From sequence record KY963424: 64,000 bases of DNA; one strand, written 5' to 3'. Origin of the DNA: Shigella phage SSP1. The notes beneath the pieces are model-generated. The model did no database searches and had not been told where the DNA came from. It was given only the letters and a program-made list of their open reading frames with translations. This document shows, in pieces, positions 30-64,000 of this stretch. A program made the translations under genes and the position numbers. Position 1 is the first letter of the stretch; each line of letters begins with the position of its first letter.

Positions 30-211
30 ATTTAAGGATTAGTATGTTTAAACTCCTAGTAGTTATCTGGTATAGCCAATCAAATAGAGCTAATACCTCT
101 CACGTTATAGACTTTAATACTAAAAATGAAGCTGAAGAAGCATATGCTAATTTAATACAACGTAATAAAGAATCTCGTAGTATAGTTTATGAAGTGACTA
201 AACTTTATTAA
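17..211 (+). CDS. hypothetical small protein (start uncertain, probably internal ATG near 44)
   Basis: ORF in track; 5-prime end overlaps tRNA fragment so annotated start is doubtful. Confidence 0.3.
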   Translation: MPSTNLRISMFKLLVVIWYSQSNRANTSHVIDFNTKNEAEEAYANLIQRNKESRSIVYEVTKLY

Positions 212-219
212 AAATTCAT

Positions 220-248
220 TTGCTTTCTCTCTTATTTATTGTTATAAT
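220..248 (+). promoter_or_regulatory. T5 early-type sigma70 promoter (TTGCTT-N17-TATAAT)
   Basis: -35 TTGCTT 220-225, -10 TATAAT 243-248, 17-bp spacer, conserved leader ATAAATTAATGAGAGGG before ATG 279. Confidence 0.75.
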
Positions 249-278
249 ATTTATATAAATTAATGAGAGGGAAACCAA

Positions 279-572
279 ATGAAACGTTATCTTTCTGTTG
301 TGTTCCAAACTGGTGGTCAACGCTATACCTATGAATTTCCTAGCTCTTGGAAGATCAAAGAAGGTGATCAAGTAGTAGTGTTAACACCGCGTGAGGGTTT
401 CAAGGTAGTAACGGTTAAGCAAGTATTTCCAAAAGATCGTGAACCAGCTAAAGGCATTCGCTATAAGATGATTCATGGTGTAGTTCGTCAAGTACCACGA
501 GCGGAAGTCGAAATCAAAGTAGATAAAGATGGTAAACTTAAATATACCTCTTGCTTAGATGAGTTGCTATAA
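279..572 (+). CDS. hypothetical early protein
   Basis: ORF directly downstream of consensus promoter and RBS-containing leader. Confidence 0.6.
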   Translation: MKRYLSVVFQTGGQRYTYEFPSSWKIKEGDQVVVLTPREGFKVVTVKQVFPKDREPAKGIRYKMIHGVVRQVPRAEVEIKVDKDGKLKYTSCLDELL

Positions 573-778
573 TGAGAATTACTTTCACAGAAAAGATTAT
601 GGGTAATGGTGTTATGATCATTACCGCATGGGATGGTAATCAGTGGTGTAGTGTTTCAGGTATTAAGCCTGAAGAACAAACACTAGAAAATATCTCAAAG
701 ATTAAGCGAAGAATGGCAGAACGTGCACGACTTCCAGGTGCGCCTAGAAATGGTAAACGTTCTGCAATTAAATATTAA
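572..778 (+). CDS. hypothetical early protein
   Basis: ORF overlapping previous stop (ATGA-type coupling). Confidence 0.5.
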   Translation: MRITFTEKIMGNGVMIITAWDGNQWCSVSGIKPEEQTLENISKIKRRMAERARLPGAPRNGKRSAIKY

Positions 779-779
779 T

Positions 780-856
780 GCTTCGGTAGCTTAGCGATCT
801 AAAGCACTCGGCTGATAACCGAGAGATCGGGGGTTTAAATCCCTCCCGGAGTACCA
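780..856 (+). tRNA. tRNA-Ile (anticodon GAU)
   Basis: Cloverleaf by eye: acceptor GCTTCGG/CCGGAGT, anticodon stem CTCGG/CCGAG with loop CTGATAA, T-stem GGGGG/CCCTC, 3-prime CCA. Confidence 0.7.
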
Positions 857-953
857 AATTTAGGAATTAAGACTATGCGTCCAGGAAAGTTTAAAAAAGC
901 TAATTGGTCTAAAGAGTATAAAGAATACTTACTTAGTCTAGTAAAACATAACA

Positions 954-1671: not shown

Positions 1672-1752
1672 TGGGGTTTGGATACGATTTCTCCCAGCTA
1701 CGCAAGGTAGTCGAGCAAACTCCATTTATCTCCCAAGTTTTAGGAGAAATGT

Positions 1753-2052
1753 GTGGATCGAGCATTAAGACGCCATCACCGGCAACGTGTGAAAAACAAT
1801 CGCAAAAAGTATTGGACAGTCTTCCCACATGAAGAAAGTCCTAAGCGGTTAGGCATTATCACTACCACTCCTTGCATCTGTTCTTGTTGGATGTGTGGGA
1901 ATCCTCGCAAATACTATAAGAATAGTAAAGCAGGTATGAAAATCTCGGAGATTAAAAAGATGGATGCAATGATTATGGGCATCACCTTTACAGGTGGTAT
2001 CTCTGATGAATTCGACGGTTTTGTAACTCAGGATATTGTCGAAATTATCTAA
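1753..2052 (+). CDS. hypothetical Cys-rich protein (GTG start, uncertain)
   Basis: ORF with CxCxC..CxxC cluster; non-ATG start in track. Confidence 0.35.
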   Translation: MDRALRRHHRQRVKNNRKKYWTVFPHEESPKRLGIITTTPCICSCWMCGNPRKYYKNSKAGMKISEIKKMDAMIMGITFTGGISDEFDGFVTQDIVEII

Positions 2053-2061
2053 TTAATAATA

Positions 2062-2098
2062 AACCCCAGCTATTGAATACGTAGTCTGGGGTTTTCTT
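2062..2098 (+). terminator. putative intrinsic terminator
   Basis: Stem AACCCCAG/CTGGGGTT followed by TTTCTT. Confidence 0.5.
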
Positions 2099-2116
2099 GT
2101 ATATAGGATTTTCGAA

Positions 2117-2302
2117 ATGAAAATTTTTAAAGTGAACTATAGCGGCCTGTGGTTAGGTGGTACAGCTATTGTTGTTGCGGAAACTGTGGAAGAAGCAATC
2201 GAACTGGCTAGAAACCATAGAAGTTCTATAGAATTCGAGGATGTGACAGTAGAAGAACTCCCGAGCAGTGGGGTAGTATACAACGACAACGGAGATTACT
2301 GA
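2117..2302 (+). CDS. hypothetical protein
   Basis: ORF with upstream RBS. Confidence 0.45.
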   Translation: MKIFKVNYSGLWLGGTAIVVAETVEEAIELARNHRSSIEFEDVTVEELPSSGVVYNDNGDY

Positions 2303-2360
2303 TGTTATATTTTGAAGTTCGCCCACATTAAGTTAATTTAAAAGACTTAATGGAGGTAAT

Positions 2361-2756
2361 ATGAGCCGTACATATCGTAAACAATCTGGTGATCGTCACT
2401 GGCGTGATGCACATCGTTCTACTTATAATTTTCATAGCACTAATATCCGTATTCCGTATATCTACACGGATAGGGATGGTAAGCAGTGGAAGTATTATCA
2501 AGTTCGATCCAATGAAGCATGGGCTAAAACTTGGGATGAAATTGAGAAGGAGATTCAGGAAAATATCATCCGTAACGAGAAGAAAGATGGGCACTGGTGG
2601 GATTCTGTTAGTAGGAATGTTAAGTGGCATTCTAACAAAATGGTTCGTCAAGGAAACCGTCGCGAACTTCATCGTGTGATGAAAGATCCAGAAAATTACG
2701 ACTATAATCGCGATCATGATCTGCGTAAGCGTGGGTTATGGTGGTGCTACGACTAA
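2361..2756 (+). CDS. hypothetical basic protein
   Basis: ORF with RBS GGAGG; Trp/Arg-rich. Confidence 0.5.
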   Translation: MSRTYRKQSGDRHWRDAHRSTYNFHSTNIRIPYIYTDRDGKQWKYYQVRSNEAWAKTWDEIEKEIQENIIRNEKKDGHWWDSVSRNVKWHSNKMVRQGNRRELHRVMKDPENYDYNRDHDLRKRGLWWCYD

Positions 2757-2773
2757 TTTCGTAAATAATTCAT

Positions 2774-2802
2774 TTGCTAAAACCCTCTCCTTTTGATATA
2801 AT
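2774..2802 (+). promoter_or_regulatory. T5 early-type promoter (TTGCTA-N17-TATAAT)
   Basis: -35 2774-2779, -10 2797-2802, conserved leader ATAAATTGATGAGAGGG. Confidence 0.75.
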
Positions 2803-2832
2803 ATTTATATAAATTGATGAGAGGGCTTTGAA

Positions 2833-3105
2833 ATGAAAGAAGCAGAAATTAATGAAATGGCTAGAGTATTCATCGTTTCCTATATGCAAGGCAGTTGCAA
2901 TAGTTTATTCGAGTCCGCTGTAGTATTTCAGGAAATGTTAGCCGAAAAAGGCGTACATATGGAAGATACTGAAATTGAAGATCTTCTAATGGAAACTTGT
3001 AGTAGTGCTGAAGTCTTCCAGTGTGGTAACTGTAATTGGTGGTGTCCAGAGCATGATCGTTCTGAAGAAGGTTCCTACTGTTCCGATTGTGAAGGAGAAG
3101 AATAA
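2833..3105 (+). CDS. hypothetical acidic Cys-rich protein
   Basis: ORF downstream of consensus promoter; C-terminal CGNCNWWC..CSDC motif. Confidence 0.55.
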   Translation: MKEAEINEMARVFIVSYMQGSCNSLFESAVVFQEMLAEKGVHMEDTEIEDLLMETCSSAEVFQCGNCNWWCPEHDRSEEGSYCSDCEGEE

Positions 3106-3404
3106 TGAATAAGTTTATTATTGCTCTGGTGATTTCAGCAGTTAGTTTCGGTTCTCTGGCATCTACCAAAGTTTCTATGAAAAATGGTAATGTTAAAGTT
3201 CAACAGAACGGCATTATTACCGAATATGGTAAAGTTCGTGATGTTAAGGAACGTAATGGTAAAGTAGAAATCTATACTAATAAAAACTTCTCTACTCCAG
3301 CCGTTACTATTAGCAAACGCGGTGAAATAACCACTCAACGTACTAATAGCTCCAGTTCTTTTACTTGTCGTTATGATTGCGACTTTGAAGGTGAAGATGA
3401 ATAA
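3105..3404 (+). CDS. putative secreted/periplasmic protein
   Basis: N-terminal signal-peptide-like MNKFIIALVISAVSFGSLAS. Confidence 0.5.
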   Translation: MNKFIIALVISAVSFGSLASTKVSMKNGNVKVQQNGIITEYGKVRDVKERNGKVEIYTNKNFSTPAVTISKRGEITTQRTNSSSSFTCRYDCDFEGEDE

Positions 3405-20160: not shown

Positions 20161-20161
20161 G

Positions 20162-20745: not shown

Positions 20746-20855
20746 AATAACTCCCTAGTAAATATATTTTTGCCAATAGTGGCGAACGTTATCGCCCCCA
20801 GCGGAATCATTAGCGGCCTTACTATTACCAACGAAAGTATATAATCTCATTAGTA

Positions 20856-21017: not shown

Positions 21018-21018
21018 A

Positions 21019-21363: not shown

Positions 21364-21364
21364 T

Positions 21365-21699: not shown

Positions 21700-21701
21700 T
21701 T

Positions 21702-21881
21702 TTATTCTCCTTTACTATTCATGCAGCCCAGCAGATAAGAAAATGCAGCGATACCCGCGCCAATAATAACCATTGGTTTTGTGACTACTAAACCGCAATA
21801 ATCTTGAATGCCGTAAGCGGTGGCGAAAAGGGTCAAAATAGCGCCCAAGATACCCGCCAGAATAGCTCGAAAAATAACCAT
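21702..21881 (-). CDS. small two-TM membrane peptide (59 aa, cassette)
   Basis: GGGGAG RBS; MVIFRAILAGILGAILTLFATAYG...MVIIGAGIAAFSYLLG; below track cutoff. Confidence 0.45.
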   Translation of the reverse strand: MVIFRAILAGILGAILTLFATAYGIQDYCGLVVTKPMVIIGAGIAAFSYLLGCMNSKGE

Positions 21882-21931
21882 TTTTTAATACTCCCCTAGT
21901 TAGTGGGGCGAAAGTAACGCCCCGTTATTAA

Positions 21932-22162
21932 TTACATTAAGATAATTTTTGCAGCTTGTTTTTTGGTGCAATGTTCCGCCTTCAGGGTATCCAGCAAAAA
22001 GCCCGCTGTTTGTTGATCGATTTGATCATTATCATAAAGCGTCTGGATGGTGTTATAAGTTTTAGCAATGCCGTATTCTTGGACCATTTCTTGAATAATC
22101 CAGCGATTTGATACCCAGCCTTTACCAGTGAAAAGAGCGTCAGAAGAAGAAAAAGCAACCAT
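21932..22162 (-). CDS. hypothetical protein (cassette)
   Basis: 76-aa ORF on cassette strand. Confidence 0.5.
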   Translation of the reverse strand: MVAFSSSDALFTGKGWVSNRWIIQEMVQEYGIAKTYNTIQTLYDNDQIDQQTAGFLLDTLKAEHCTKKQAAKIILM

Positions 22163-22277
22163 TTTAAGCCTCCAAATTTTTGGGAAAATTTTCGACCGTC
22201 CTCAAACGGTGTAAAGGCATTATAACAAAAAAGGCCACCATAAAAGGCGACCTTTACAAAACTTTACAATAGGCTAG

Positions 22278-23267
22278 TTATTGCTCGTTTTCGGTGTTAT
22301 TGGTAAAAGTAGAAATATCGATACCTTTTACCATTTCATCGATCATCTCAGCGATGTTAAAACTTTGGACCATTTCCAACATTGCCGCTTCCATAGCCGC
22401 CCCCGCTACCGCTTTCGCTTTCTGGTTACTCGGGGCGTACTGGTCAACCGCTACACTCAGCAGGTTAGCGATCACTACACGACCAACCGGCGTATCAATA
22501 TAGCCTTTGATCATGAACGGTGCTTTTTTAGCCGCTACTTTCGTGATTTGAGTTAGTGCAATTTTACCCGCTTCCAGTTTTGCAGCGTTTACAACGGCAG
22601 ACTTATTGGCGGCAACGATGTTAGCAATCTTGGTCATAGTGTTTTTTCCTTTATTTTCAGTAGTTTGAGTGTGAACGCTTTTAGTGTTAGAATTTACAGC
22701 ATGTTTTTCTATATTGCCAATACTTTCTTCCCTTTCGAAAGAAAATCCGGCGTCAACAATATCGCCGTCATATACCCGATTATATAACTCCGACGGTAGC
22801 AAAAAATTACCGTTATCATCAAAGGCCATTATAGCCGCAAAACGATACCCATCAGAATCCGACCGATTCCAGCCAACTGATAAATAACGCCAAAATGAAT
22901 CAAGAAAATTTTCTACGTCATAAAGATCATTATCATTGGCCTCATAGTTTTCTATTGAAAAAACTTCTAAGCCCGCCCCAGTATCATAGGCTTTTACTGT
23001 GTTGCCTTTTACGATTATGAAATCAGTATCCGGCCCCCGACTAGTGAGTAATTGATAATCCTGATTATACAAAACAAGCGTTGCCCCTTGCTTATATAAC
23101 GGTAGAAAACTATTCATATTATAAGCATCATAAGCATCAAAAAAGTTTTGATGAATAGTTTCAATATTGAAAACAAAATGTTTAATGCTGGTGGTCCTGC
23201 TACCATCCAGCAGGTTACGCAGCGCACCTTTTAAGACGGTTGCGTTATCTGGTTTATATAGCCTCAT
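22278..23267 (-). CDS. hypothetical 329-aa protein (first and largest cassette gene)
   Basis: Long ORF with RBS GAGGAGG; N-terminal Asp/Tyr-rich domain and Ala/Lys-rich helical C-terminal half; no motif I recognise. Confidence 0.6.
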   Translation of the reverse strand: MRLYKPDNATVLKGALRNLLDGSRTTSIKHFVFNIETIHQNFFDAYDAYNMNSFLPLYKQGATLVLYNQDYQLLTSRGPDTDFIIVKGNTVKAYDTGAGLEVFSIENYEANDNDLYDVENFLDSFWRYLSVGWNRSDSDGYRFAAIMAFDDNGNFLLPSELYNRVYDGDIVDAGFSFEREESIGNIEKHAVNSNTKSVHTQTTENKGKNTMTKIANIVAANKSAVVNAAKLEAGKIALTQITKVAAKKAPFMIKGYIDTPVGRVVIANLLSVAVDQYAPSNQKAKAVAGAAMEAAMLEMVQSFNIAEMIDEMVKGIDISTFTNNTENEQ

Positions 23268-23552
23268 TTGTTGGCCTCCTCGTTAATCGGTGAGTGAATG
23301 ATAAGGGTAATTTTCTAGTATAGGCAAAGATTATTTTACTTTTTTATTTTCCTTGCCTAGTGCCTAATTTTATGCTAACCGCGCAGCGGTGTAATAAAGA
23401 GCAAAACACGGCGAAGCCACCAGGGCGCCGCATTGCCGCCACCTGGCCAACGTGTTGGGCCTTTACTTTAATATTACCCCGCAGCGTTTAGCTCGTTAGA
23501 AAGCGTTTTAGGCGGCCTAAAATTGATTGCAGTCGTTAACACTGCCTTTCTA

Positions 23553-23572
23553 CCCTGTATATTTATACAGTA
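23553..23572. promoter_or_regulatory. LexA box-like palindrome (CTGTATATTTATACAG core)
   Basis: CTGT-N8-ACAG with AT spacer, 17 of 20 to LexA consensus; inverted copy of the site at 20276-20295. Confidence 0.5.
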
Positions 23573-23686
23573 GGATAACCTGTGGATAACTCTGTGTAAA
23601 AGTCCCCATATCGCCGCCTATTGTGTCAAATTATTTTGTGCTGTGGATAACGTTGTGGATAACTTAAATGATAGTGGTTCTCACTT
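23553..23686 (+). repeat. right arm of inverted repeat carrying DnaA boxes
   Basis: TGTGGATAA at 23581-23589, 23642-23650, 23654-23662; reverse complement matches 20162-20295. Confidence 0.8.
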
Positions 23687-23696
23687 ATGCCGATAG

Positions 23697-23765
23697 TTTC
23701 TTATAGTTATTATTATAATGGTGATGATTACATATAGCTATTATTATAGTGGTGATGATTTCATA
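23697..23765 (+). repeat. AT-rich direct repeats (two copies of about 31 bp)
   Basis: AGTTATTATTATAATGGTGATGATTACATAT and AGCTATTATTATAGTGGTGATGATTTCATAT in tandem inside a 350-bp AT-rich non-coding stretch. Confidence 0.75.
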
Positions 23766-24045
23766 TAGTTATTATTTCTCATTAATTTATAAGTATATTA
23801 TATATCATGAAATAGTTAGTTGGCTAATGAGATTTTCCGTGATTAATAGTCTGCTAATAGTTCAGGCCGTTACAATCCACCAGCATGATTATCATCCTAG
23901 CAATTATTAGTCTGCTATCTTTCCGATGCATACTAACAAATAAAAGTCAATTAATTAATTTTATAAAATAAGTCATTTGATCTTGATTTTTAAAAGTCAA
24001 GACCTTTTCCAACTATTTTTCAATTTTGCGTTTGTTAATGATTTG

Positions 24046-24285
24046 TTAAGTCGAAAATAGGCGGCCTAAAACGCCCCAGAACGCAATAAAGTTTTTAGCC
24101 ATCCCATCATAAGGGGATATGCCGTTTATCGCTGCCACGAGGTTTTTGGATTTTGTCAAGTAGGGCAGGGCAAATATAAATGAAAAAATTACTTGCCTAT
24201 TTGCTTTGTTTTGTGGTATTCGCGCGCCCGTTTCTTTTAATTTTGGGCCGTCGCCGGACGTGGTGCGGAAAACTGTATTAGCCAT
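24046..24285 (-). CDS. hypothetical protein (doubtful)
   Basis: 79-aa minus-strand ORF without clear RBS or promoter. Confidence 0.25.
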   Translation of the reverse strand: MANTVFRTTSGDGPKLKETGARIPQNKANRQVIFSFIFALPYLTKSKNLVAAINGISPYDGMAKNFIAFWGVLGRLFST

Positions 24286-24286
24286 A

Positions 24287-24314
24287 TTGCTAATAATTTT
24301 GATATAATATAATA
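24287..24314 (+). promoter_or_regulatory. sigma70 promoter (TTGCTA-N16-TATAAT)
   Basis: -35 24287-24292, -10 24309-24314, upstream of HNH gene with AGGAG RBS. Confidence 0.5.
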
Positions 24315-24342
24315 ACCAAATGAAACTAATAGGAGAATACTA

Positions 24343-24684
24343 ATGATTGAACTAACAAAAGATATTGATTTAGAAACCGTACTAGATAACCTTTACTATG
24401 ATGAAACTAGTCCTAGTTGCCTACGGTGGAAAGTATCCCGCCCCGGTTGCGCCCTTCATGGGGTAGCAGGTACTAAACGGAAGGATGGCTATTGGTCTGT
24501 TCAACTAAATAAAGAGCGTTATCTTGCGCATCGTATTGTGTGGTTACTATTTAATTATAAAATAGATAGCAAACTAGTAATTGATCATATTGATCGTAAT
24601 CCTAGTAACAATTTTATTGATAACTTACGGTTAGTAACTCAAGCCGAAAACAACCAAAATAAAGGAGAGTATAGAAAGGCGTAA
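24343..24684 (+). CDS. HNH homing endonuclease
   Basis: LAHRIVWLLF...IDHIDRNPSNNFIDNLRLVTQAENN HNH_3 motif; AT-rich relative to neighbours. Confidence 0.75.
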   Translation: MIELTKDIDLETVLDNLYYDETSPSCLRWKVSRPGCALHGVAGTKRKDGYWSVQLNKERYLAHRIVWLLFNYKIDSKLVIDHIDRNPSNNFIDNLRLVTQAENNQNKGEYRKA

Positions 24685-24804
24685 AATTTACATTTCTTTA
24701 CAAATATAAGGTTGCGCCTTTTTCGTTATTTGTTATTATTTATCTCGTAGGGCGGCAATGACGAACTACACGGCGGGAAGTTTACCGCCGCGCTCTTTAA
24801 AAAT

Positions 24805-24828
24805 TGGGTATATCTTAAAGCCTATCGG
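24805..24828 (+). repeat. left copy of 24-bp inverted repeat TGGGTATATCTTAAAGCCTA(T/C)CGG
   Basis: Reverse complement of 25075-25098 with one mismatch. Confidence 0.8.
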
Positions 24829-24862
24829 CGGTAAACTTATTACATTATAAGGAATCGACGAT

Positions 24863-25066
24863 ATGAAACAAACTTTATTGATCACTGGTAAACCTAGCAA
24901 GGCACTGGATAGCAAAACAAAAAATTTATTGACAGTAGCGCAAAGATCGGTAAAATATCGATTTGAGCAGTACAAGAAAGGCCGCCAGCAAGGTTTAGAA
25001 ATGATCTGGCGAAATATTATGATCGACCTGAAGGAAAATCATAAAAAACTGCAAAAAATAGTTTGA
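24863..25066 (+). CDS. hypothetical basic 67-aa protein flanked by inverted repeats
   Basis: ORF with AAGGAA RBS lying between the two 24-bp repeat copies. Confidence 0.45.
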   Translation: MKQTLLITGKPSKALDSKTKNLLTVAQRSVKYRFEQYKKGRQQGLEMIWRNIMIDLKENHKKLQKIV

Positions 25067-25074
25067 CAACATAG

Positions 25075-25098
25075 CCGGTAGGCTTTAAGATATACCCA
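25075..25098 (-). repeat. right copy of 24-bp inverted repeat
   Basis: CCGGTAGGCTTTAAGATATACCCA is reverse complement of left copy. Confidence 0.8.
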
Positions 25099-25296
25099 GT
25101 TCGATAAGAGCGATAACTTGATACAATTTGACGGTCGGTACTTACCATAATGTGCCCCGCCCCCTAACTGGGATATAGCGGCCCGCGTGGAGTTCCTTAA
25201 ATTGATTTTATAATGGCGAGCGGATTTTTTCTTATTACCTGTTATTTTCCAGCAGGTAATGCGGAACAATCCCCTAAATAACTTGGAGTTTATACC

Positions 25297-25548
25297 ATGA
25301 AAAACGTTATTACCGCGCCTAAAATTGGTCAATCTGTTTTCATCCCTTTCGTTACTAAAACGGATGAATTAACCGGAAAAGCCGAACGTATTAAAGGCGC
25401 GGCGCTCATGCCGTTCGATACAATCGATGCGGTATACGCTGAAACAGAACGCAGTAACAACGGCAAGCCGATTTATAACGTTCGCGTTAAATCTGGCGAC
25501 GTTGTAAAGGTTGTTCAACGCAACGAAAAATGGGAAGCCGTTTTATAA
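25297..25548 (+). CDS. hypothetical pre-early protein
   Basis: ORF preceded by conserved leader CCCCTAAATAACTTGGAGTTTATACC. Confidence 0.55.
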   Translation: MKNVITAPKIGQSVFIPFVTKTDELTGKAERIKGAALMPFDTIDAVYAETERSNNGKPIYNVRVKSGDVVKVVQRNEKWEAVL

Positions 25549-25562
25549 TTTAGTGTTAACTT

Positions 25563-25590
25563 TATATGCCCCAGTAGTTCGGGGCATATA
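25563..25590 (+). other. GC-cored hairpin without U-tract (pre-early intergenic punctuation)
   Basis: 10-bp stem TATATGCCCC/GGGGCATATA with 8-nt loop. Confidence 0.6.
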
Positions 25591-25646
25591 ACGATTAACA
25601 TTATGTTAATCTTATCCCTTAAATTAAATTAATTGGAGTTTATATC

Positions 25647-26054
25647 ATGACTAACGTTAAAGCCGCAAAATTCACCTGGAACGAAGAAAACACCCAAAAA
25701 GCTGTTACCATGTATCAGCAGTTAATCAATGAAAACGGATTAGAATTCGCAAACAGCGACGGCCTGAAAGAGATTGCGAAAGCAGTGGGCGCGACTTCTC
25801 CCGTGTCAGTTCGTTCGAAATTGACCAGCGCGAAAGCCTATCAAAAAAGCGATAAGCCTCGCAAGGTTGGCGGCGGTAGCTCAATCCGCAAGGCTCATTA
25901 TGTGCGAGTAATTGCAAGACACGCCATCGATTCCGGCATTATCAAAGACGCCGATGATCTGGCAAGCCTTGAAAGCGCGAAGCTGGAAACGCTGGACGCC
26001 GTGGCGCAGTTGTTAGGCGTTGCCGATGAGGTGAAACAAGCCGCAGGCGAATAA
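25647..26054 (+). CDS. hypothetical pre-early protein
   Basis: ORF preceded by leader CCTTAAATTAAATTAATTGGAGTTTATATC. Confidence 0.55.
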   Translation: MTNVKAAKFTWNEENTQKAVTMYQQLINENGLEFANSDGLKEIAKAVGATSPVSVRSKLTSAKAYQKSDKPRKVGGGSSIRKAHYVRVIARHAIDSGIIKDADDLASLESAKLETLDAVAQLLGVADEVKQAAGE

Positions 26055-26062
26055 ATTTAATT

Positions 26063-26088
26063 AGTGGGGATTATTCCCCACTATTTTC
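26063..26088 (+). terminator. hairpin / possible terminator
   Basis: Stem AGTGGGGA/TCCCCACT loop TTAT followed by ATTTTCC. Confidence 0.5.
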
Positions 26089-26109
26089 CCCTTGATTGGA
26101 GTTTTTAAA

Positions 26110-26307
26110 ATGATCTTTTACCCCACTGAATCGCTCATTCTAGGCTTATTTATTATGGCGGCCTCGTTATTGTTCGCATATTTTCAAAATGATTTAGATT
26201 CGTATTATTTTAAACGCAAATCTAAGTTAGCGAAGCGTTTGGGCCTGATTTGTTTTATTGCCGCCGTTGCTTGTGGTGTTAGTTCTAGCCTGATGCCGAT
26301 TAGTTAA
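26110..26307 (+). CDS. small two-TM membrane protein (pre-early)
   Basis: ATG after TTGGAGTTTTTAAA leader; hydrophobic LILGLFIMAASLLFAYF and LGLICFIAAVACGV. Confidence 0.5.
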   Translation: MIFYPTESLILGLFIMAASLLFAYFQNDLDSYYFKRKSKLAKRLGLICFIAAVACGVSSSLMPIS

Positions 26308-26319
26308 ATATTGCAAATT

Positions 26320-26345
26320 ATAACGCCTATTATTGGAGGCGTTAT
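26320..26345 (+). other. intergenic hairpin
   Basis: Stem ATAACGCCT/AGGCGTTAT. Confidence 0.55.
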
Positions 26346-26347
26346 AT

Positions 26348-26364
26348 TTGGCAATATTTGCCAA
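26348..26364. promoter_or_regulatory. 17-bp palindrome TTGGCAA-TAT-TTGCCAA (operator-like)
   Basis: Perfect 7-bp half-sites, located about 40 bp upstream of A1 start. Confidence 0.4.
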
Positions 26365-26404
26365 TAACAAACGTTTTTTAATCCCTTTAATGGAGTTTAT
26401 TATT

Positions 26405-28075
26405 ATGATTATTTCCGCAGAAAAACAAACCGTTATCCTGAAGCTGGCCGCTGACTTTAATTTCTATGGTAAACGTCTGCGCGCCACTAAATTGGAAGTA
26501 TGTGACGATATTTCGAAAGCGGTATACGATACACCGAAACACTCTACCGCGATTTGTGATTGGCTGGAAGCAAATAAACCAGCGAAACCGAAAACGGCAA
26601 AAGTAGCAAAAGCTATTAAAAACGACGAGCGCCCCGAGGCGGCTGGAATTATTTCTAGCACGGTGGAACAGTGGGAAGTAAAGCAGGGCAAACGCTTTAT
26701 TATTACATCGATTCAGAATAATACTTTCCCGCATAAAAACTTTTTGGCCTCACTGGAACAATACGCTAAATTTATCGGCGCTGATTTACTTGTTTCTAAG
26801 TATATTTATAACAAAAACGGCTTTCAAAATGGTGAAGGCGCGGACGGTGTAAAATATGATTCCGCGTTTGATAAGTATATTTGCAGCAAAAACGTGTTTT
26901 TAAATAACCGCCGTTTTGCTTTCATGGCTGAAATTAATGTTCTGCCCACTGCAGACTATCCGCTGTCTGGATTCGCAGAAACTGCAACGGCTCTCAATCT
27001 TGAAGGTCTGGCAATTGGTCACGCTAAAATCACCGCCGAAAGCGTGCCAGCTCTCAAAGGTGAAGTAGTACGCCGCATGTACTCAACCGGAACGGCAACA
27101 CTCAAAAACTACATTCAGCAGAAAGCAGGACAGAAAGCGGAAGCACTGCATAATTTCGGTGCGCTGATTGTTGAGTTCGACGAAGACGGTGAGTTTTTTG
27201 TGCGCCAGCTTGAAACGATGGACGAAAGCGGCATGTTTTACGATTTGAATATTTGCGCGACCCCCGCCGGATGTTATGAAACATCGGGGCATGTTTTAGG
27301 TTTACAATATGGCGACATACACGCCGAAAAACTTGATGAGGAGTGCGCCGCAGCGTCATGGGGTCATGGTGATACTTATGGGCTAGTGGATATTCTTAAA
27401 CCTAAATATCAGTTTGTGCATGACGTTCACGATTTTACATCACGCAACCATCACAACCGCGCTTCAGGTGTATTTCTAGCGAAACAGTATGCAGCCGGAC
27501 GTGACAAGGTTCTGGATGATCTCATCGACACCGGGCGCGTGCTGGAATCAATGGAACGTGATTTTAGTCAAACGATCATTGTCGAATCTAATCACGATCT
27601 GGCGCTATCCCGTTGGCTTGATGATCGCAATGCTAACATTAAAGACGATCCAGCCAACGCGGAACTGTATCACCGCCTTAATGCTGCGATTTACGCGGCA
27701 ATCGGTAATCATGACGATACTTTCAACGTGCTGGATTATGCGCTGCGTACGGTTGCAGGTTGCGAGTTTAACGCGATTTTCCTGACAACTGACCAATCGT
27801 TTAAAATCGCAGGCATTGAATGCGGCGTACACGGTCACAACGGCATTAACGGGAGCCGTGGCAATCCGAAGCAATTCAAGAAATTGGGCAAGTTAAACAC
27901 GGGGCACACCCACACCGCCAGCATTTACGGCGGCGTTTATACCGCTGGCGTCGCTGGTTCCCTCGATATGGGCTATAACGTTGGCGCGTCAAGCTGGACG
28001 CAAACGCATTTAATTACCTATGCAAACGGCCAGCGCACTTTGATTGACTTTAAAAACGGCAAATTTTTCGCATAA
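26405..28075 (+). CDS. A1: A1 pre-early protein (metallophosphatase-fold, host DNA degradation/takeover)
   Basis: 556 aa from ATG 26405 as recalled for T5 A1; phosphoesterase motifs GDIHAE and GHGD; conserved pre-early leader. Confidence 0.75.
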   Translation: MIISAEKQTVILKLAADFNFYGKRLRATKLEVCDDISKAVYDTPKHSTAICDWLEANKPAKPKTAKVAKAIKNDERPEAAGIISSTVEQWEVKQGKRFIITSIQNNTFPHKNFLASLEQYAKFIGADLLVSKYIYNKNGFQNGEGADGVKYDSAFDKYICSKNVFLNNRRFAFMAEINVLPTADYPLSGFAETATALNLEGLAIGHAKITAESVPALKGEVVRRMYSTGTATLKNYIQQKAGQKAEALHNFGALIVEFDEDGEFFVRQLETMDESGMFYDLNICATPAGCYETSGHVLGLQYGDIHAEKLDEECAAASWGHGDTYGLVDILKPKYQFVHDVHDFTSRNHHNRASGVFLAKQYAAGRDKVLDDLIDTGRVLESMERDFSQTIIVESNHDLALSRWLDDRNANIKDDPANAELYHRLNAAIYAAIGNHDDTFNVLDYALRTVAGCEFNAIFLTTDQSFKIAGIECGVHGHNGINGSRGNPKQFKKLGKLNTGHTHTASIYGGVYTAGVAGSLDMGYNVGASSWTQTHLITYANGQRTLIDFKNGKFFA

Positions 28076-28082
28076 TTAAATT

Positions 28083-28110
28083 TATAAGCGGGGTATATAC
28101 CCCGCTTATA
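28083..28110 (+). other. GC-cored hairpin without U-tract
   Basis: Stem TATAAGCGGGG/CCCCGCTTATA around TATATA loop. Confidence 0.6.
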
Positions 28111-28142
28111 TCCCTTATTAAATTAATTGGAGTTTTATAACT

Positions 28143-28535
28143 ATGAAAAAGCAAAATATCCCATTCGATCGCGCTCAATCTTCCATCGTTCTGGTTTATT
28201 CTAATGGTGAGCGGTATCACGTTGAGGCCGGTCACGTTGTTGATGATTTAATCGACTTTAATGACGCTTTACAGATTACTACTTTCGCCTATACGCAAGG
28301 CCGCGCAAGTAGTCACATCAAGGCCGCAGGCGTTTATGTTGATACGGTGAAGCAGGAAACGATTATCATCGACGCCGTAAAATCCGGTCTAGCCTTTGCA
28401 GTTGTCGCGCCTTGTCCAGCTTGCTTTGATGATCAGCTATCGAGCGCAAAGGTATATATCTGCGCGGGTGTTCGTTCTCATGTATCCGGCGAAGATATTA
28501 GTTTCATCGCTGATGCGTTGGCTTATGGTCTTTGA
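28143..28535 (+). CDS. A2: A2-like pre-early protein (assignment by position and size)
   Basis: 130-aa ORF between A1 and dmp with conserved leader TTAAATTAATTGGAGTTTTATAACT. Confidence 0.45.
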   Translation: MKKQNIPFDRAQSSIVLVYSNGERYHVEAGHVVDDLIDFNDALQITTFAYTQGRASSHIKAAGVYVDTVKQETIIIDAVKSGLAFAVVAPCPACFDDQLSSAKVYICAGVRSHVSGEDISFIADALAYGL

Positions 28536-28548
28536 TAGTTGATTTATT

Positions 28549-28575
28549 ATTGCCCGCTGATAAATAGCGGGCAAT
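28549..28575 (+). other. GC-cored hairpin without U-tract
   Basis: 10-bp stem ATTGCCCGCT/AGCGGGCAAT, loop GATAAAT. Confidence 0.6.
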
Positions 28576-28615
28576 GCTGGATAAACTAAATCCCTTTAAT
28601 GGAGAACGTAACAAA

Positions 28616-29350
28616 ATGAATCAAGTTAAAATGAATATTACCCGTAATTTCCCGCATATTTCCCGCGTCATGATTTGGGATCTGGACGGAACAATCATTA
28701 ATTCATTCCATCGTGTCGCGCCTTGCTTTGATAGCGAGGGTAATTTAGATTTAAATAAGTATAAGAATGAAGCGTGTAAGCATCATTTAATAATGCAAGA
28801 TACCTTATTGCCTTTGGTTGAATATATGCGCCAGTGCATGAATGACGCAAATACTTTAAACATTATTTGTACCGCTCGACTAATGAGCAAATCGGACTAT
28901 TATTATTTGCGCAAACAAGGCTTACGCGGTCGTGGGGATAGTAATATCCGCGTGTTTTCCCGCGATACGCTGCATAAATATTTTGAAGCTGATAAAGTTA
29001 GCGAAATATACCACAGTAAGGACGCAGTTTATAAATCGTATTATTTTGAGCTATTCAAACAACTATATCCGAACGCTGATTTTACAATGATTGATGATCA
29101 TAAAGGTGTATTATCAGCGGCAGCGTCATACGGATTTAAAACGCTGGACGCGCAAGCCGTTAATGATATTCTATCAATCGGCGTGGCATTGATAGGCGGA
29201 ACCTTTATTGATGAATCTCTCGATGATGATAATGATTATCAGTTCCTAGCGGACCGCTTAAAACTATGTTGGGAAAGCATGACCGAAGAAGAACGCGCAG
29301 AATATAGTTGCAGCCCGCAACAATATATTGAGAAATTAAAAGTTGCGTAA
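28616..29350 (+). CDS. dmp: 5-prime-deoxyribonucleotidase (HAD family)
   Basis: 244 aa from ATG 28616 as recalled for T5 Dmp; HAD motif I WDLDGTI. Confidence 0.75.
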   Translation: MNQVKMNITRNFPHISRVMIWDLDGTIINSFHRVAPCFDSEGNLDLNKYKNEACKHHLIMQDTLLPLVEYMRQCMNDANTLNIICTARLMSKSDYYYLRKQGLRGRGDSNIRVFSRDTLHKYFEADKVSEIYHSKDAVYKSYYFELFKQLYPNADFTMIDDHKGVLSAAASYGFKTLDAQAVNDILSIGVALIGGTFIDESLDDDNDYQFLADRLKLCWESMTEEERAEYSCSPQQYIEKLKVA

Positions 29351-29526
29351 TAATTAAAATTGAAATAGTTTCATCCTGTAATTAAAAATGGTTGCAGGGT
29401 GAAACAGTTAGCAGGGTAATAGTCACGGGGGTGGCGGTTAGCAGACTAAGTATTTTCGCCCTAGCCACTGGACTCACCCACGCGTACGTAATCCAAAGAA
29501 TTTGGCAAAAGTCATTTTAGCGCTAA

Positions 29527-30024
29527 TTAATTATGATTTGCAAACTCACCGTGATAGTGCTCCCTGGCTTTTCTAAGTTCTTTTTCAGCCTGCTCAAGAG
29601 TTTTAAAAGTTCCCACGGTAATCCTATTGCCATTTACACGTAATTTTGCTTCGAACTTTTCCTCACCACGTTTATATACTCCCTTAACTCCGGTAGACTC
29701 ATTCTTCCATCCCGAAGAGTTTTTGCCATTCTCTGCATTTGTTGCTTTACGCAGGTTATTCCATCTATTGTTGAAAGGATCTTGATCTTTATGATCAATG
29801 AGAAACTCACTCGGATCTTCTCCTGTCATGTATAGATATGCTACCCGATGGGCTTTATATAACCCATTACTGCCCATTGATAGGGATATTCCTGAGCTGT
29901 TTCTACTGCCTGCTGGCTTACCTTTACGACTTCCCGAGTTCCAAGTAAAGATACCAGTTCCAGGATCATAATCAAATTTCTTCTGGTATTCTGCTAAGGG
30001 CAGTAGAGGTTTATGATTTGCCAT
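29527..30024 (-). CDS. HNH homing endonuclease with AP2-like domain
   Basis: AHRVAYLYMTGEDPSEFLIDHKDQDPFNNRWNNLRKATNAEN; 165 aa, paralog of 5634-6131. Confidence 0.75.
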   Translation of the reverse strand: MANHKPLLPLAEYQKKFDYDPGTGIFTWNSGSRKGKPAGSRNSSGISLSMGSNGLYKAHRVAYLYMTGEDPSEFLIDHKDQDPFNNRWNNLRKATNAENGKNSSGWKNESTGVKGVYKRGEEKFEAKLRVNGNRITVGTFKTLEQAEKELRKAREHYHGEFANHN

Positions 30025-34742: not shown

Positions 34743-34856
34743 ATAAGTATAGGATGGGATACTACTCAGTTGGTATCCCATCCCTGCATTTTAAAATCCC
34801 CTTTACAAATTCGATACGATTATGTATACTATATTCATACAGTTGAGGAGAACACT

Positions 34857-35294
34857 ATGGCAAGCAATGTAAAATATAAACGCGATGCTATATCCCTTAT
34901 GAGAGACGGAATAAAAAGTCAATATAAAAAAGACTCTCAATGTGCTATCTGCGGTTGTGCTGAAGAATTAGAGCTTCATCATTACCATACGGTGTCTCTA
35001 CTAGTTAAAAAATTTGCTAAAGAACTCCAATTGGATTTCACTGACGAAGAAATAGTCCTTTCAAATAGGACGGCATTCTATGATCGATATAGGCATGAGC
35101 TAGTAGAAGACACTGTTACCCTTTGTGTACACCATCACCAATTATTACATAAGGTTTACACAAAAGAACCTCCTTTATTTTCTGCTAATAAGCAAAAAGT
35201 GTGGGTTCAAAAGCAGAAAGACAAATTACAGAATCCTCAAGAAAAGACACAAGTCAAGACTGAAACAAAATCAGGATTCGCAAGGTTCTTATAA
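34857..35294 (+). CDS. HNH endonuclease (terminase/portal-associated)
   Basis: CAICGC...LELHHYH...CVHHHQLLH zinc-binding HNH motif; GAGGAG RBS at internal ATG. Confidence 0.65.
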   Translation: MASNVKYKRDAISLMRDGIKSQYKKDSQCAICGCAEELELHHYHTVSLLVKKFAKELQLDFTDEEIVLSNRTAFYDRYRHELVEDTVTLCVHHHQLLHKVYTKEPPLFSANKQKVWVQKQKDKLQNPQEKTQVKTETKSGFARFL

Positions 35295-61385: not shown

Positions 61386-63224
61386 TTATTCTAAGTAGGA
61401 AAATCCTTCTGCATCTTTTTTGACAGTAATCTTATGGGCCAATGGATGCGTATGCCCATGAGAAACAATGATAGAATTTAGACTTTCTTCCTCATTTAAT
61501 AATTCAACAAGGGTGTCAAGTCCTTTAGTATCAATAAAGCTAATTACTTCATCAAGGAATAGAAGATTAATATTAACTTTACTAATAGATGTTAGTAGCA
61601 TTCGAATAGCTAACAGAGTTGCTAGGTTGATTCTACTTTGCTGACCAGTAGAGCAGTTCTCCATACTGGTACGGTTTCCATCATTGAAGATTACTACTTG
61701 TAATTTCGTTTCATCAAGCTCAAATCCAAGTGCGAACTTACCGCCAGTCATAATAGAAAGGTATTTATTGATAAGCTCTTCAAATACTTTCACACTATGC
61801 TCTAGTTTATACCCTACCAGATTTTTCAATGCGGCGATCAGAATATCGAGATCAGCAACAGCTTCTGATACTCCATCTAGTTTGGAAGTAATCTCAGACA
61901 TTTCTGCCTCAGCTTTCTCAATCTGTTCTAGTTTCGCTCTATATTTTGCATTGGCTAATTCAACATTTGCATTATGCTCTTTGGCAATTGCAACCTTAGA
62001 ACGTCCGTCAGCGATTTCCTGTTCTAGTTGTCGGATTTGCACCTGTAGGTTTTGCACATTGAGTTCTTCAAAAGAGGCATCACTCATTGAATTTTTGAAC
62101 TCGTCTCTAGCTGCTACTGCTTTATCCAAAGCATCCTTTGCTCTGATATACGTAGTGTACTCAAGTTGTTCTTTCTTCAGCTGTTCTAGCTTGGTTTCAA
62201 GAGATTGCTTCTCTTTGAACAGAGGATCATATTCTGTTCTAGCCATATCCATTGCTTTTTGAGCAGCAGTTATATCCAGATGAGTACCACAAGTAGGACA
62301 TTCAGTATTTGAAGCCTCTTGCTTGAACTTCTGATAACGTTTCTTGACTTCGCCCGCACGTGAGGTCACAATTGTTAGGTCACGCGTAACACTCGAGATC
62401 TCTTCATTTTGGTCGGTGGGCGCAGGTAAATTTTTGAAAGGCTCGAAAGATTGTTCGGCAACTTGTACAGCTTTGTCCAAATTACGCAATTTAGTAATAT
62501 TAGCCTCTTGAGACTTGGCTAATGCCGCCTTAATTTTCGATTCAGTAAGTTCTTGTGCTAAGGGTTCTTCGTCAAACTCAGGCACTTCGACTGGTTCCTG
62601 CAAAGTTCCCAGATTATTCTTTCCATTAAGGATTTTCGTAATTACAGCCATTTGGCCCTGCAAATTATTCAAGGTATTTGCTATTTCTTTACGGTCGGCC
62701 TTAATAGTTTCTGACATTTCTTTGTACTGTTCTTGATTGAACAAGTTAACAAGAAAAGCCTTACGTGTTGCATCTGTTGCTTTTAGAAAATCTAGGTTGG
62801 AACCCACTGATTGATAAATTAGTTTGGTGAATGTTTGGAAGTCACCACCCATAATCTCTTCAATCATCTTGTATGTTTGAGTTGCCGTGTGGCCACTAAT
62901 ATCTTCTCCATTCTTAATAAGAGTTACTTTAGCAGTTGATTTAACTACTTTATGCAATTCATACTCATCTTCATCTTTTGAGAAGTAAGCGTGCATATCA
63001 TACTCTTTTTTCGGAGAAGACCAGGAGAACAGAGCATCCTTCTTAATACCACGTGAGTTCTTATTATAAAATAGTTCTTCAATAACAGTAGCAATAGTGG
63101 ATTTTCCTAACCCATTGCCACCAATTAGTTGGGTAACTGGATTCTTATCGAAATGAATTACGATGTCCTTACCGTAAGACATAACGTTACTAAATTTTAG
63201 TGTCTTAATTGTAATCTTTGACAT
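61386..63224 (-). CDS. D13: SbcC/Rad50-like recombination ATPase
   Basis: Walker A GGNGLGKST, long coiled-coil middle, CxxC zinc hook (CPTCG), C-terminal signature/Walker B LLFLDEV; start set at internal Met. Confidence 0.85.
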   Translation of the reverse strand: MSKITIKTLKFSNVMSYGKDIVIHFDKNPVTQLIGGNGLGKSTIATVIEELFYNKNSRGIKKDALFSWSSPKKEYDMHAYFSKDEDEYELHKVVKSTAKVTLIKNGEDISGHTATQTYKMIEEIMGGDFQTFTKLIYQSVGSNLDFLKATDATRKAFLVNLFNQEQYKEMSETIKADRKEIANTLNNLQGQMAVITKILNGKNNLGTLQEPVEVPEFDEEPLAQELTESKIKAALAKSQEANITKLRNLDKAVQVAEQSFEPFKNLPAPTDQNEEISSVTRDLTIVTSRAGEVKKRYQKFKQEASNTECPTCGTHLDITAAQKAMDMARTEYDPLFKEKQSLETKLEQLKKEQLEYTTYIRAKDALDKAVAARDEFKNSMSDASFEELNVQNLQVQIRQLEQEIADGRSKVAIAKEHNANVELANAKYRAKLEQIEKAEAEMSEITSKLDGVSEAVADLDILIAALKNLVGYKLEHSVKVFEELINKYLSIMTGGKFALGFELDETKLQVVIFNDGNRTSMENCSTGQQSRINLATLLAIRMLLTSISKVNINLLFLDEVISFIDTKGLDTLVELLNEEESLNSIIVSHGHTHPLAHKITVKKDAEGFSYLE

Positions 63225-64000
63225 ATTTCGCAGCTCTAGCCAAGATTCTATCAATGTCACCTTGAGATAGCTTCTCAACTTCACGGAAGTAAAGTTCAAG
63301 TTCACCTAACATATCAAGATCAACAAGATTTAACTTAGCGTCTTTAGTAACTCGATGATTAATCTTCTTATCTAATAAATCAGAGTCTTTGATAGACTTT
63401 AATTGAACAACGTCACCAGTAACTTCATAGACTACACGATCATAATCACTAGGTTCCATCTCTTCACCAGCTCCGATTGTTTTACGAATCAGTTGTGGTA
63501 AATCACCGAGTTCAATCCATTCTACTTTTAATGTATCGGTATCAATGATAAAGCAACCATTTGTACCTTTTGTGCGTTCTCTATGGAACGATGTAGTTAA
63601 TGGAGACCCTGGGTAGAGGAGTCTAGTAGATCCGATAGTCTGGCTATTAGTATAAGAATGTAAATCGCCAGCAATTACAGTATCATAACAGTTGTACTTA
63701 GTTAGATCAATTTCTGGTTTTACATGTGGAGGGATTTCACCACGAACATGCGTGAAACATAGTTTTGATTCAGATGGTTTCCACTTAGACTTATGGATCT
63801 CATCATACGGAACAATATCAAATTCAGGGGAACGATATGGTTTGGTAATTACTTCCCACTTCCCACTCGTTACTTTATTAATAACTCCCGCATAATGATA
63901 TAGGCATGAAATAGTTTTAGTTAACATTTCATGATTTCCAGTAAAGATTTTGCCCGGATGGTCAAGTCTTGACATGAACTGTTCAAGCAGTTCTATTTCT
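63205..64000 (-). CDS. D12: SbcD/Mre11-like nuclease, 5-prime truncated by window end
   Basis: Phosphoesterase motifs GNHE, GDLHS, HGH; reading frame open to window edge so true start lies beyond 64000. Confidence 0.8.
   Translation of the reverse strand, partial: EIELLEQFMSRLDHPGKIFTGNHEMLTKTISCLYHYAGVINKVTSGKWEVITKPYRSPEFDIVPYDEIHKSKWKPSESKLCFTHVRGEIPPHVKPEIDLTKYNCYDTVIAGDLHSYTNSQTIGSTRLLYPGSPLTTSFHRERTKGTNGCFIIDTDTLKVEWIELGDLPQLIRKTIGAGEEMEPSDYDRVVYEVTGDVVQLKSIKDSDLLDKKINHRVTKDAKLNLVDLDMLGELELYFREVEKLSQGDIDRILARAAKYVKDYN

Follow-up and report, generated by a model that had tools for sequence, protein, structure and literature searches.

The pre-early protein A1 is essential: it is needed for host-DNA degradation and for second-step transfer, and is reportedly both necessary and sufficient for the degradation of host DNA. 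Pre-early protein synthesis itself undergoes an A1-dependent shut-off. The T5 reference record (RefSeq NC_005859) places A1 at 1706..3376 (556 aa, YP_006832.1), dmp at 124..858 (244 aa, YP_006829.1), D13 at 77769..79607 (612 aa, YP_006956.1) and T5.153 at 105346..105783 (145 aa, YP_006981.1); the T5 lengths that an initial annotation of the DNA studied here had given for A1 and dmp are correct. For A1, a metallophosphatase-type catalytic fold or DNase activity has been proposed (bioRxiv 10.64898/2026.04.02.716235). A 556-aa A1 has been used in T5 work (PMC8108384), and the reported size of gpA1, ~60 kDa (PMC7472727), cannot tell 556 from 580 residues. Nothing relevant to the starts came from a literature search on T5 pre-early proteins that covered N-terminal sequencing, proteomics and ribosome profiling.

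Where do the counterparts of these genes begin in another phage? We analyzed a window of 64,000 nucleotides from Shigella phage SSP1 (KY963424), a Tequintavirus and not T5 itself. In the phage collection, its nearest relative at the DNA level is Salmonella phage SPC35 (NC_015269; 95.7%), which has the same gene order. Under the longest-ORF rule, which takes the first ATG, GTG or TTG after a stop, A1 would comprise 580 instead of 556 residues and dmp 258 instead of 244; the initial annotation had called these ORFs over-extended by 24 and 14 residues, and our analysis bears this out. Judged from comparative sequence data, A1, dmp, an HNH-like gene and D13 very probably start at ATG 26405, 28616, 34857 and 63224 (- strand), respectively, the in-frame stretches upstream being non-coding. 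Ribosome initiation at these four ATGs is what we infer from the observed positions, conservation patterns and structures. Given the base composition here, the probability that an ATG, GTG or TTG occurs in frame before the first upstream stop is about 0.42. Over-extension affects 3 of the 11 pre-early genes, where about 42% of genes would be expected, and is thus no more than chance predicts. The features of the A1-dmp region are as follows.

26319..26346, + strand: intercistronic hairpin 1, after the T5.005 homologue
26333..28075, + strand: longest A1 ORF, from TTG 26333, 580 aa
26333..26404, + strand: supposed 24 N-terminal A1 codons, very probably non-coding leader
26348..26364, + strand: hairpin 2, a small hairpin or near-palindrome, TTGGCAATATTTGCCAA, containing TTG 26348
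26380..26395, + strand: A1 leader 16-mer AATCCCTTTAATGGAG, with TCCC box (26382-26385) and Shine-Dalgarno (SD) GGAG (26392-26395)
26405..28075, + strand: A1 coding sequence from the corrected start, 556 aa plus stop
28143..28535, + strand: T5.002 homologue, 130 aa, between A1 and dmp; its longest ORF begins at the homologous start
28548..28576, + strand: intercistronic hairpin before dmp, with ATG 28574 base-paired in the 3' arm
28574..29350, + strand: longest dmp ORF, from ATG 28574, 258 aa
28589..28604, + strand: dmp leader 16-mer AATCCCTTTAATGGAG, with GGAG (28601-28604) 11 nt before the ATG
28616..29350, + strand: dmp (5'-deoxyribonucleotidase) coding sequence, 244 aa plus stop

Alignment with the T5 proteins, the check that had been proposed for these starts, yields full-length matches from the corrected methionines: 95.9% identity for A1 (residues 1-556 of 556) and 96.3% for Dmp (244 of 244 residues). 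The 556-aa A1 is moreover identical to SSP1 YP_009794572.1. Pfam scans were run on both the long and the short protein forms. Pfam domain boundaries could not settle the starts of A1, Dmp and the HNH-like protein, and PHROG profiles were therefore used to place them; these family profiles begin at the corrected methionine or a few residues after it. A1, which lacks any Pfam match even at E <= 5, matches PHROG 1745 ('DNA transfer protein', E = 1.8e-244) such that profile position 8 falls on residue 32 of the 580-aa form, which puts position 1 on Met 26405.

A1 belongs to the first-step-transfer terminal repeat, where the T5.005 and T5.002 homologues flank it, and the variation around its start can be followed across relatives. 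After the ATG, codon position 3 holds 38 of the 53 variable sites. The leader alignment contains indels of 1 and 6 nt, and an in-frame start codon upstream of the ATG is absent in 20 of 27 relative haplotypes, T5 included. In T5, a TAA closes the upstream frame 6 codons before the ATG; because this phage has in-frame stops and no start codon upstream, the extensions of A1 and dmp are impossible in that phage. The SD-ATG spacer of A1 measures 9 or 10 nt depending on the phage, which flips the frame, and in the present phage the extension frames of A1 and dmp are open by chance. In distant A1 homologues (36-48% identity) the likeliest starts fall opposite residues 9-21 of the 556-aa form, and these proteins therefore show no N-terminal extension. 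An A1 start at 26390 was examined and rejected. Translation of the upstream stretch would give the N-terminal peptides LAIFANNKRF... or MEFII..., and the 556-aa form begins MIISAEK....

Could the present phage, like SPC35, make a 575-aa A1 from TTG 26348, alone or alongside the 556-aa form? Such a protein would use a frame that was opened when the SD-ATG spacer lost 1 nt, with GGAGG 8 nt upstream of a TTG that is equivalent to SPC35's annotated start. The extension frame is open here, the SD pairing of TTG 26348 is the strongest among the A1 candidates (GGAGG, -9.3 kcal/mol, 8 nt spacing), and long forms are annotated in SPC35 (RefSeq, 575 aa), Th1 (573 aa, TTG) and YJin-2024a (586 aa). However, this GGAGG (26335-26339) lies in the loop and 3' arm of hairpin 1, where it is paired, and TTG 26348 is held in hairpin 2; the two hairpins jointly fold at -20.4 kcal/mol (z = -4.8). 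GGAGG is found in few haplotypes only, in two of which (L010 and L020) the A1 frame is closed. The extension is missing in T5, whose A1 functions, and neither the 575-aa nor the 580-aa sequence was found in the protein collection. We regard synthesis of the 575-aa form as very unlikely.

Hairpin 1, whose loop also contains TTG 26333, is paired in 95% of cells and shows compensatory changes in 4 of its 9 pairs; the core columns of hairpin 2 are almost invariant among 28 haplotypes. The start that we favor, ATG 26405, is preceded at 9 nt by GGAG, with an SD duplex of -5.9 kcal/mol. The conserved GGAG leader that the initial annotation had seen before A1 and dmp proves to be an identical 16-mer at both genes, and it is kept in relatives.

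The 244-aa dmp product is an exact match to SSP1 YP_009794574.1. Its residues 21-26 read WDLDGT, comparable to HAD motif I (DxDGT), and the Pfam HAD_2 score remains below cut-off (13.2 versus 23.8 bits, E = 0.098). Among 25 haplotypes, the CCCT and GGAGAA of the dmp leader do not vary. The SD duplex amounts to -6.4 kcal/mol, at a spacing of 11 nt, which is close to the longest usually seen; relatives have a spacer of 10 or 11 nt, and the leader carries 1-nt indels. A start at 28670 was examined and then rejected.

The alternative for dmp is the 258-aa protein that SPC35 and NR01 annotate from ATG 28574. This codon is an ATG used in two RefSeq records, and its frame is open in the present phage and in 8 of 26 relatives. 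It has, however, no usable SD, and it is base-paired within a covarying hairpin (-18.3 kcal/mol, z = -4.9) in which 95.8% of cells are paired, compared with 55% or less in slid controls, and compensatory changes have occurred at 6 of the 11 pairs. In 18 of the 26 relatives, T5 included, the extension frame is closed or shifted, and an upstream start codon is likewise absent in 18 of 26. The profile of PHROG 415 (E = 2.7e-58) aligns its position 1 with Met 28616, not with 28574, and the 258-aa form was not found in the protein collection. We consider it extremely unlikely that dmp begins at 28574. The N-terminal peptide specific to the 258-aa form would be MLDKLNPFNGERNK; the 244-aa form begins MNQVK....

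The shared leader extends beyond A1 and dmp. The A2-A1-dmp pre-early operon has six consecutive genes, with starts at 25297, 25647, 26110, 26405, 28143 and 28616, and each of them carries a TCCC box of consensus ATCCCTTWAAT that is followed, 6-16 nt further on, by a TGGAGTT Shine-Dalgarno. This arrangement is almost absent from the rest of the genome. T5 keeps it, as do relatives with an A1 of only 66-67% identity. At 36-48% identity, distant A1 homologues lack the box, so the motif is restricted to T5-like phages. A literature search for the leader motif found no description of it. The leader is unstructured and lies 3' of a covarying hairpin. Two explanations were considered and rejected: pairing of the TCCC box with GGAG to sequester the SD, and pairing of the box with the 16S 3' end. 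TCCC and GGAG are not complementary, a longer match to the anti-SD would be expected 3' and not 5' of the SD, and the leaders fold no better than shuffles (z 0 to +1). We tentatively raise the idea that the TCCC-GGAG leader is an operon-specific post-transcriptional signal, be it a translational operator, an enhancer or a processing site; it may take part in the shut-off of pre-early protein synthesis that depends on A1.

How are the stretches upstream of A1 and dmp organized? Each is an intercistronic region in which a stable hairpin is followed by a variable spacer and a conserved unstructured leader. Within the leader, the order is TCCC box, GGAG Shine-Dalgarno, 9-11 nt and ATG, and ribosomes would load there. 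The hairpins that hold the upstream start codons of A1, dmp and the HNH-like gene are all stable (z -4.8 to -5.3). A scan for Rho-independent terminators on the + strand did not call the A1 and dmp hairpins, because the loop is long or the U tract weak; these hairpins might instead serve RNA stability or processing. A promoter scan of the A1 and dmp extensions gave no site beyond background (33 sites versus 30 expected).

The remaining two genes lie outside this operon, and their features are listed here.

34752..34783, + strand: terminator-like hairpin after the large terminase gene, a 13-bp stem followed by a T-rich tail
34770 (TTG), + strand: start of the longest HNH-like ORF, 174 aa
34802..34830, + strand: sigma-70 promoter-like site TTTACA-17-TATACT, a consensus match only, within the supposed HNH extension
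34857..35294, + strand: HNH-like gene of the T5.153 family, 145 aa, with SD GAGGAG at 34845-34850
61386..63224, - strand: D13 (SbcC-like) coding sequence, 612 aa
63225..63305, - strand: supposed 27-codon D13 extension, the 3' part of D12 (SbcD-like) read in another frame
63305 (GTG), - strand: start of the longest D13 ORF, 639 aa

The HNH-like protein is 84% identical to T5.153 (T5 locus L106) over 145 of 145 residues, and its gene ends at the start of the portal gene, the same position as T5.153. The protein shows the pattern CAICGC...HHYH...CVHHHQLLH; PHROG 8048 ('HNH endonuclease', E = 7.6e-6) is its sole profile match, and a Pfam search returned none. Several records name the T5.153 family 'nicking endonuclease'. 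The start at 34857 had been put forward in the initial annotation, and it coincides with the point at which homology between two gene arrangements begins: in relatives with a T5.154 insertion, sequence is common only from the SD/ATG on, and a stop lies 8 codons upstream. The SD duplex is -9.3 kcal/mol, the ATG is replaced by GTG in one relative (L097), and codons 1-14 show synonymous changes and purifying selection. Against the corrected start counts that the extension frame is open in all relatives of the same gene arrangement. The hairpin at 34752-34783 (-22.4 kcal/mol, z = -5.3), which has TTG 34770 at the border of loop and 3' arm, was called by the scan for Rho-independent terminators, and the promoter-like site is kept in relatives with the same arrangement. 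The supposed extension is occupied by the terminase gene's terminator-like hairpin, by the promoter-like site and by GAGGAG, which is a strong Shine-Dalgarno.

What lies ahead of the D13 ATG is the terminal part of D12, in a different reading frame. The D12-like ORF ends at 63205 and overlaps D13 by 20 nt, as in T5. A change of pattern marks the start at 63224 that had been proposed for the SbcC-like gene: D12 codon position 3 accounts for 17 of the 24 variable sites upstream of the ATG, and D13 position 3 for 25 of the 29 downstream; within 63225..63305 alone the D12 count is 9 of 13. The extension frame contains stops in four relatives and has lost its GTG to GCG in nine, although it is open in T5 itself, which counts against the corrected start. 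The 612-aa protein is identical to SSP1 YP_009794607.1 and matches PHROG 77 ('SbcC-like subunit', E = 5.8e-135). It has a Walker A motif, GGNGLGKST, at residues 34-42, and Pfam assigns AAA_15 (37.5 bits, cut-off 32.1) and AAA_23 (28.6 bits, cut-off 27); SbcC_Walker_B stays below cut-off (20.8 versus 27 bits). The 20-nt overlap and the weak SD of D13 make it probable that its translation is coupled to that of D12.

Might the true starts lie further downstream, at ATG 28631 for dmp (239 aa), 34899 for the HNH-like gene (131 aa) and 63182 for D13 (598 aa)? These codons are present in the genome, several phages annotate a 131-aa HNH-like protein and some records a 598-aa D13, and public clusters include members of both lengths. 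Yet none of the three has an SD (duplexes of -0.2, +0.3 and +0.6 kcal/mol, respectively). ATG 28631 is ACG in T5 and most relatives, and the codons ahead of ATG 34899, numbers 1-14, are conserved through synonymous changes. A 598-aa D13 would lack the N-terminal strand preceding Walker A; in the 612-aa form, the Pfam SMC_N and AAA_23 alignments begin at residues 6-9. We judge these internal starts exceedingly improbable and retain the ATGs at 28616, 34857 and 63224.

What follows for annotation is mainly practical. Relatives' records disagree, and over-extended forms of A1 or dmp stand in the RefSeq or GenBank entries of SPC35 (A1 575 aa, dmp 258 aa), Th1, NR01 and YJin-2024a. With the TCCC-GGAG leader and the hairpins as landmarks, pre-early starts can be placed by one simple rule, in a consistent way for all Tequintavirus genomes, and correct N-termini are relevant when A1 or Dmp is expressed.

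Compared with T5, the phage examined here has the same start context at A1 and dmp (TCCC box, GGAG, ATG), and lacks T5.003, which in T5 lies between A1 and T5.002, and T5.154, located upstream of T5.153. The short forms of A1, dmp, the HNH-like protein and D13 are exact matches to deposited SSP1 proteins (ASD50238.1, ASD50240.1, ASD50250.1 and ASD50273.1), and the public SSP1 annotation already uses the corrected starts. These starts are thus already known, matching published annotation of both T5 and SSP1; they are an ordinary annotation detail for that reason and have little biological import. Generic over-extension by the longest-ORF rule is a known annotation artefact, of which the present case is a textbook example that differs in no respect.

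Where do A1, dmp, the SbcC-like gene D13 and the HNH-like gene of the T5.153 family begin? The initial annotation held that longest-ORF calls over-extend all four, and that internal ATG codons restore the T5 protein lengths. ORF arithmetic confirms the over-extension, the restored lengths equal those of the T5 RefSeq annotation (dmp 244 aa, A1 556 aa, D13 612 aa, T5.153 145 aa), and the corrected starts are supported at each locus.

Longest-ORF and internal starts
A1: TTG 26333, 580 aa; internal ATG 26405, 556 aa
dmp: ATG 28574, 258 aa; internal ATG 28616, 244 aa
HNH-like gene: TTG 34770, 174 aa; internal ATG 34857, 145 aa
D13 (- strand): GTG 63305, 639 aa; internal ATG 63224, 612 aa

Over-extension by itself is unremarkable: at 38.8% GC an in-frame ATG, GTG or TTG precedes the first upstream stop with a probability of 0.42, and among 11 pre-early genes the rule lengthens three, namely A1, dmp and the T5.005 homologue. 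The last of these (26092-26307) would encode 71 aa from TTG 26092 versus 65 aa from the homologous ATG 26110, which has a TCCC-GGAG leader. All 512 phage records that match region 26200-29400 are T5-like (Tequintavirus and relatives); Salmonella phage SPC35 is the best DNA match among them (95.7% identity). Gene order was set by mapping T5 proteins onto the window.

Pre-early genes placed by T5 protein mapping
25647-26054, + strand, A2
26110-26307, + strand, T5.005 homologue
26405-28075, + strand, A1
28143-28535, + strand, T5.002 homologue
28616-29350, + strand, dmp

The GGAG leader claimed for A1 and dmp is present as an identical 16-mer, AATCCCTTTAATGGAG, at 26380-26395 and 28589-28604, with GGAG 9 nt from the ATG in A1 and 11 nt in dmp. 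All six consecutive + strand genes of the A2-A1-dmp pre-early operon (starts 25297, 25647, 26110, 26405, 28143 and 28616) share the arrangement TCCC, 6-16 nt, GGAG, 7-11 nt, ATG. The TCCC box occurs at 7/13 GGAG-ATG-ORF sites of the pre-early region versus 1/29 elsewhere in the window (Fisher p = 4e-4). In T5 it is found at seven of 12 terminal-repeat sites, every one an annotated start, and at one of 22 sites across 40 kb of early- and late-gene DNA. Contigs with as little as 66-67% A1 identity retain it, and distant A1 homologues lack it. Folding predicts the TCCC-GGAG leaders to be unstructured. The box consensus is ATCCCTTWAAT (25270-28618, +; 22160-22185, -), the - strand copy belonging to the T5.012 homologue. 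Pairing with the Shine-Dalgarno (SD) or anti-SD sequence was considered and rejected, the box being complementary to neither. No description of it was found in the literature searched.

For A1, 53 loci encoding relatives were gathered from IMG/VR, giving 27 distinct upstream haplotypes. Twenty of these lack an in-frame start codon 5' of the conserved ATG, and in 17 of the 20, T5 included, the frame is closed by TAA six codons upstream; the window's open frame results solely from an SD-ATG spacer of 9 nt in place of 10 nt. The alignment places 1-nt and 6-nt indels all along the leader, which is the signature of non-coding DNA; 3' of the ATG, codon position 3 holds 38 of 53 variable sites. TTG 26333 sits in the loop of hairpin 26319-26346. 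A start at TTG 26348, the counterpart of the 575-aa A1 annotated in SPC35, would have a good GGAGG 5' of it (-9.3 kcal/mol), but that GGAGG is paired in this first hairpin and the TTG itself in a second. The two jointly fold at -20.4 kcal/mol (z = -4.8); the first keeps 95% of its pairing over 28 haplotypes, with compensatory changes at 4/9 pairs. ATG 26405 is also the Met that the PHROG 1745 phage protein family profile reaches when extrapolated, for distant homologues (36-48% identity) the most probable start codons line up with residues 9-21 of the 556-aa protein, and T5 workers take A1 as 556 aa (PMC8108384). Directly 3' of the A1-upstream hairpin, the near-palindrome TTGGCAATATTTGCCAA (26348-26364), a perfect 16-bp palindrome in T5, has a core almost invariant over 28 haplotypes and variable flanks; a protein-binding site and a second RNA hairpin are both possible readings.

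Among dmp relatives, 18/26 haplotypes, again with T5, have no upstream in-frame start codon, and the SD-ATG spacer is 10 or 11 nt. Initiation at ATG 28574 would proceed without a usable SD, from a codon base-paired in the 3' arm of hairpin 28548-28576. This hairpin folds at -18.3 kcal/mol (z = -4.9), is 95.8% paired over 24 distinct sequences and shows compensatory changes at 6/11 pairs; slid controls reach 55% at most. Position 1 of the PHROG 415 profile aligns with the Met at 28616. The downstream ATG 28631 was rejected, being ACG in T5 and most relatives.

The supposed 27-codon extension of D13 is part of the coding sequence of its SbcD-like partner, D12, in another frame. Over 28 haplotypes, D12 codon position 3 (extension-frame position 2) accounts for 17/24 variable sites 5' of the D13 ATG, and D13 codon position 3 for 25/29 beyond the D12 stop. 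The extension carries stop codons in four relatives, and its GTG is GCG in nine. Relatives at 46-47% identity share the ATG (MSK...); their GGAGG-type SD is clearer, and a stop precedes the ATG by seven codons. In the 612-aa protein, the Pfam SMC_N and AAA_23 alignments begin at residues 6-9, and Walker A lies at residues 34-42. The weak SD (-2.7 kcal/mol) and 20-nt overlap with D12 suggest translational coupling.

Of the four starts, that of the HNH-like gene has the least direct support. Relatives of the gene fall into two upstream arrangements. Where T5.154 lies upstream, as in T5, similarity to the window begins only at the SD/ATG, and a stop stands eight codons 5' of the ATG; in all same-arrangement relatives the extension frame is open. 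TTG 34770 lies at the loop/3' arm of a terminator-like hairpin (34752-34783), and a GAGGAG SD (-9.3 kcal/mol) stands 6 nt 5' of the ATG, which is GTG in one relative. Codons 1-14 are kept through synonymous changes, which excludes the 131-aa version given by some records. A sigma-70 promoter-like TTTACA-17-TATACT (34802-34830), a consensus match only, stands between the terminator-like hairpin of terminase and the HNH-like gene, and same-arrangement relatives retain it. Several public records name the T5.153-family protein (34857-35294) a 'nicking (site-specific) endonuclease', for which no support was found in the papers searched; if the name is right, this would be the enzyme making the T5 single-strand interruptions.

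The deposited proteins of Shigella phage SSP1 include the exact 556-aa A1 (ASD50238.1), 244-aa Dmp (ASD50240.1), 612-aa D13 (ASD50273.1) and 145-aa HNH-like protein (ASD50250.1), and the 580- and 575-aa A1 and 258-aa dmp forms were not found in the protein collection searched. By these matches the window is SSP1 or a phage nearly identical to it, and the short forms are the ones in its existing public annotation. Among other records, T5, SP01, GSP044, NR01 and SE11 give A1 as 554-556 aa, SPC35 as 575 aa, Th1 as 573 aa and YJin-2024a as 586 aa; for dmp, 6/8 records give 244 aa and the other two, SPC35 and NR01, 258 aa. Public clusters also hold 174-aa HNH-like and 632-aa D13 forms. With the over-extended A1 (573-586 aa) and dmp (258 aa) of RefSeq/GenBank relatives, the start-site error has spread through public databases. 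The corrections are ordinary, and reference annotations already reflect them.

Stable hairpins separate successive pre-early genes (26062-26083, 26319-26346, 28083-28110, 28548-28576); the two tested both retain pairing through compensatory substitutions. They are candidate terminators/attenuators, RNA-stability elements or processing sites. The ~10 kb T5-type terminal repeat is present in one copy (~19500-29473) with unique DNA on both flanks, one flank being the early region and the other the late/terminase region. This layout points either to repeat collapse in a circularly permuted assembly or to a junction like that of a concatemer. Just beyond its end, a 165-aa ORF (29527-30024, -; MANHKPLL...HKDQDPFNNRWNNLR) looks like a putative further homing-endonuclease-type gene.

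Compared with T5, the window lacks T5.003, the gap between A1 and the T5.002 homologue (28076-28142) holding only a hairpin. The HNH gene hegG is replaced at 24343-24684 by a 113-aa ORF, 52% identical along part of its length, and the T5.154 endonuclease is missing between terminase and the HNH-like gene (34743-34856).
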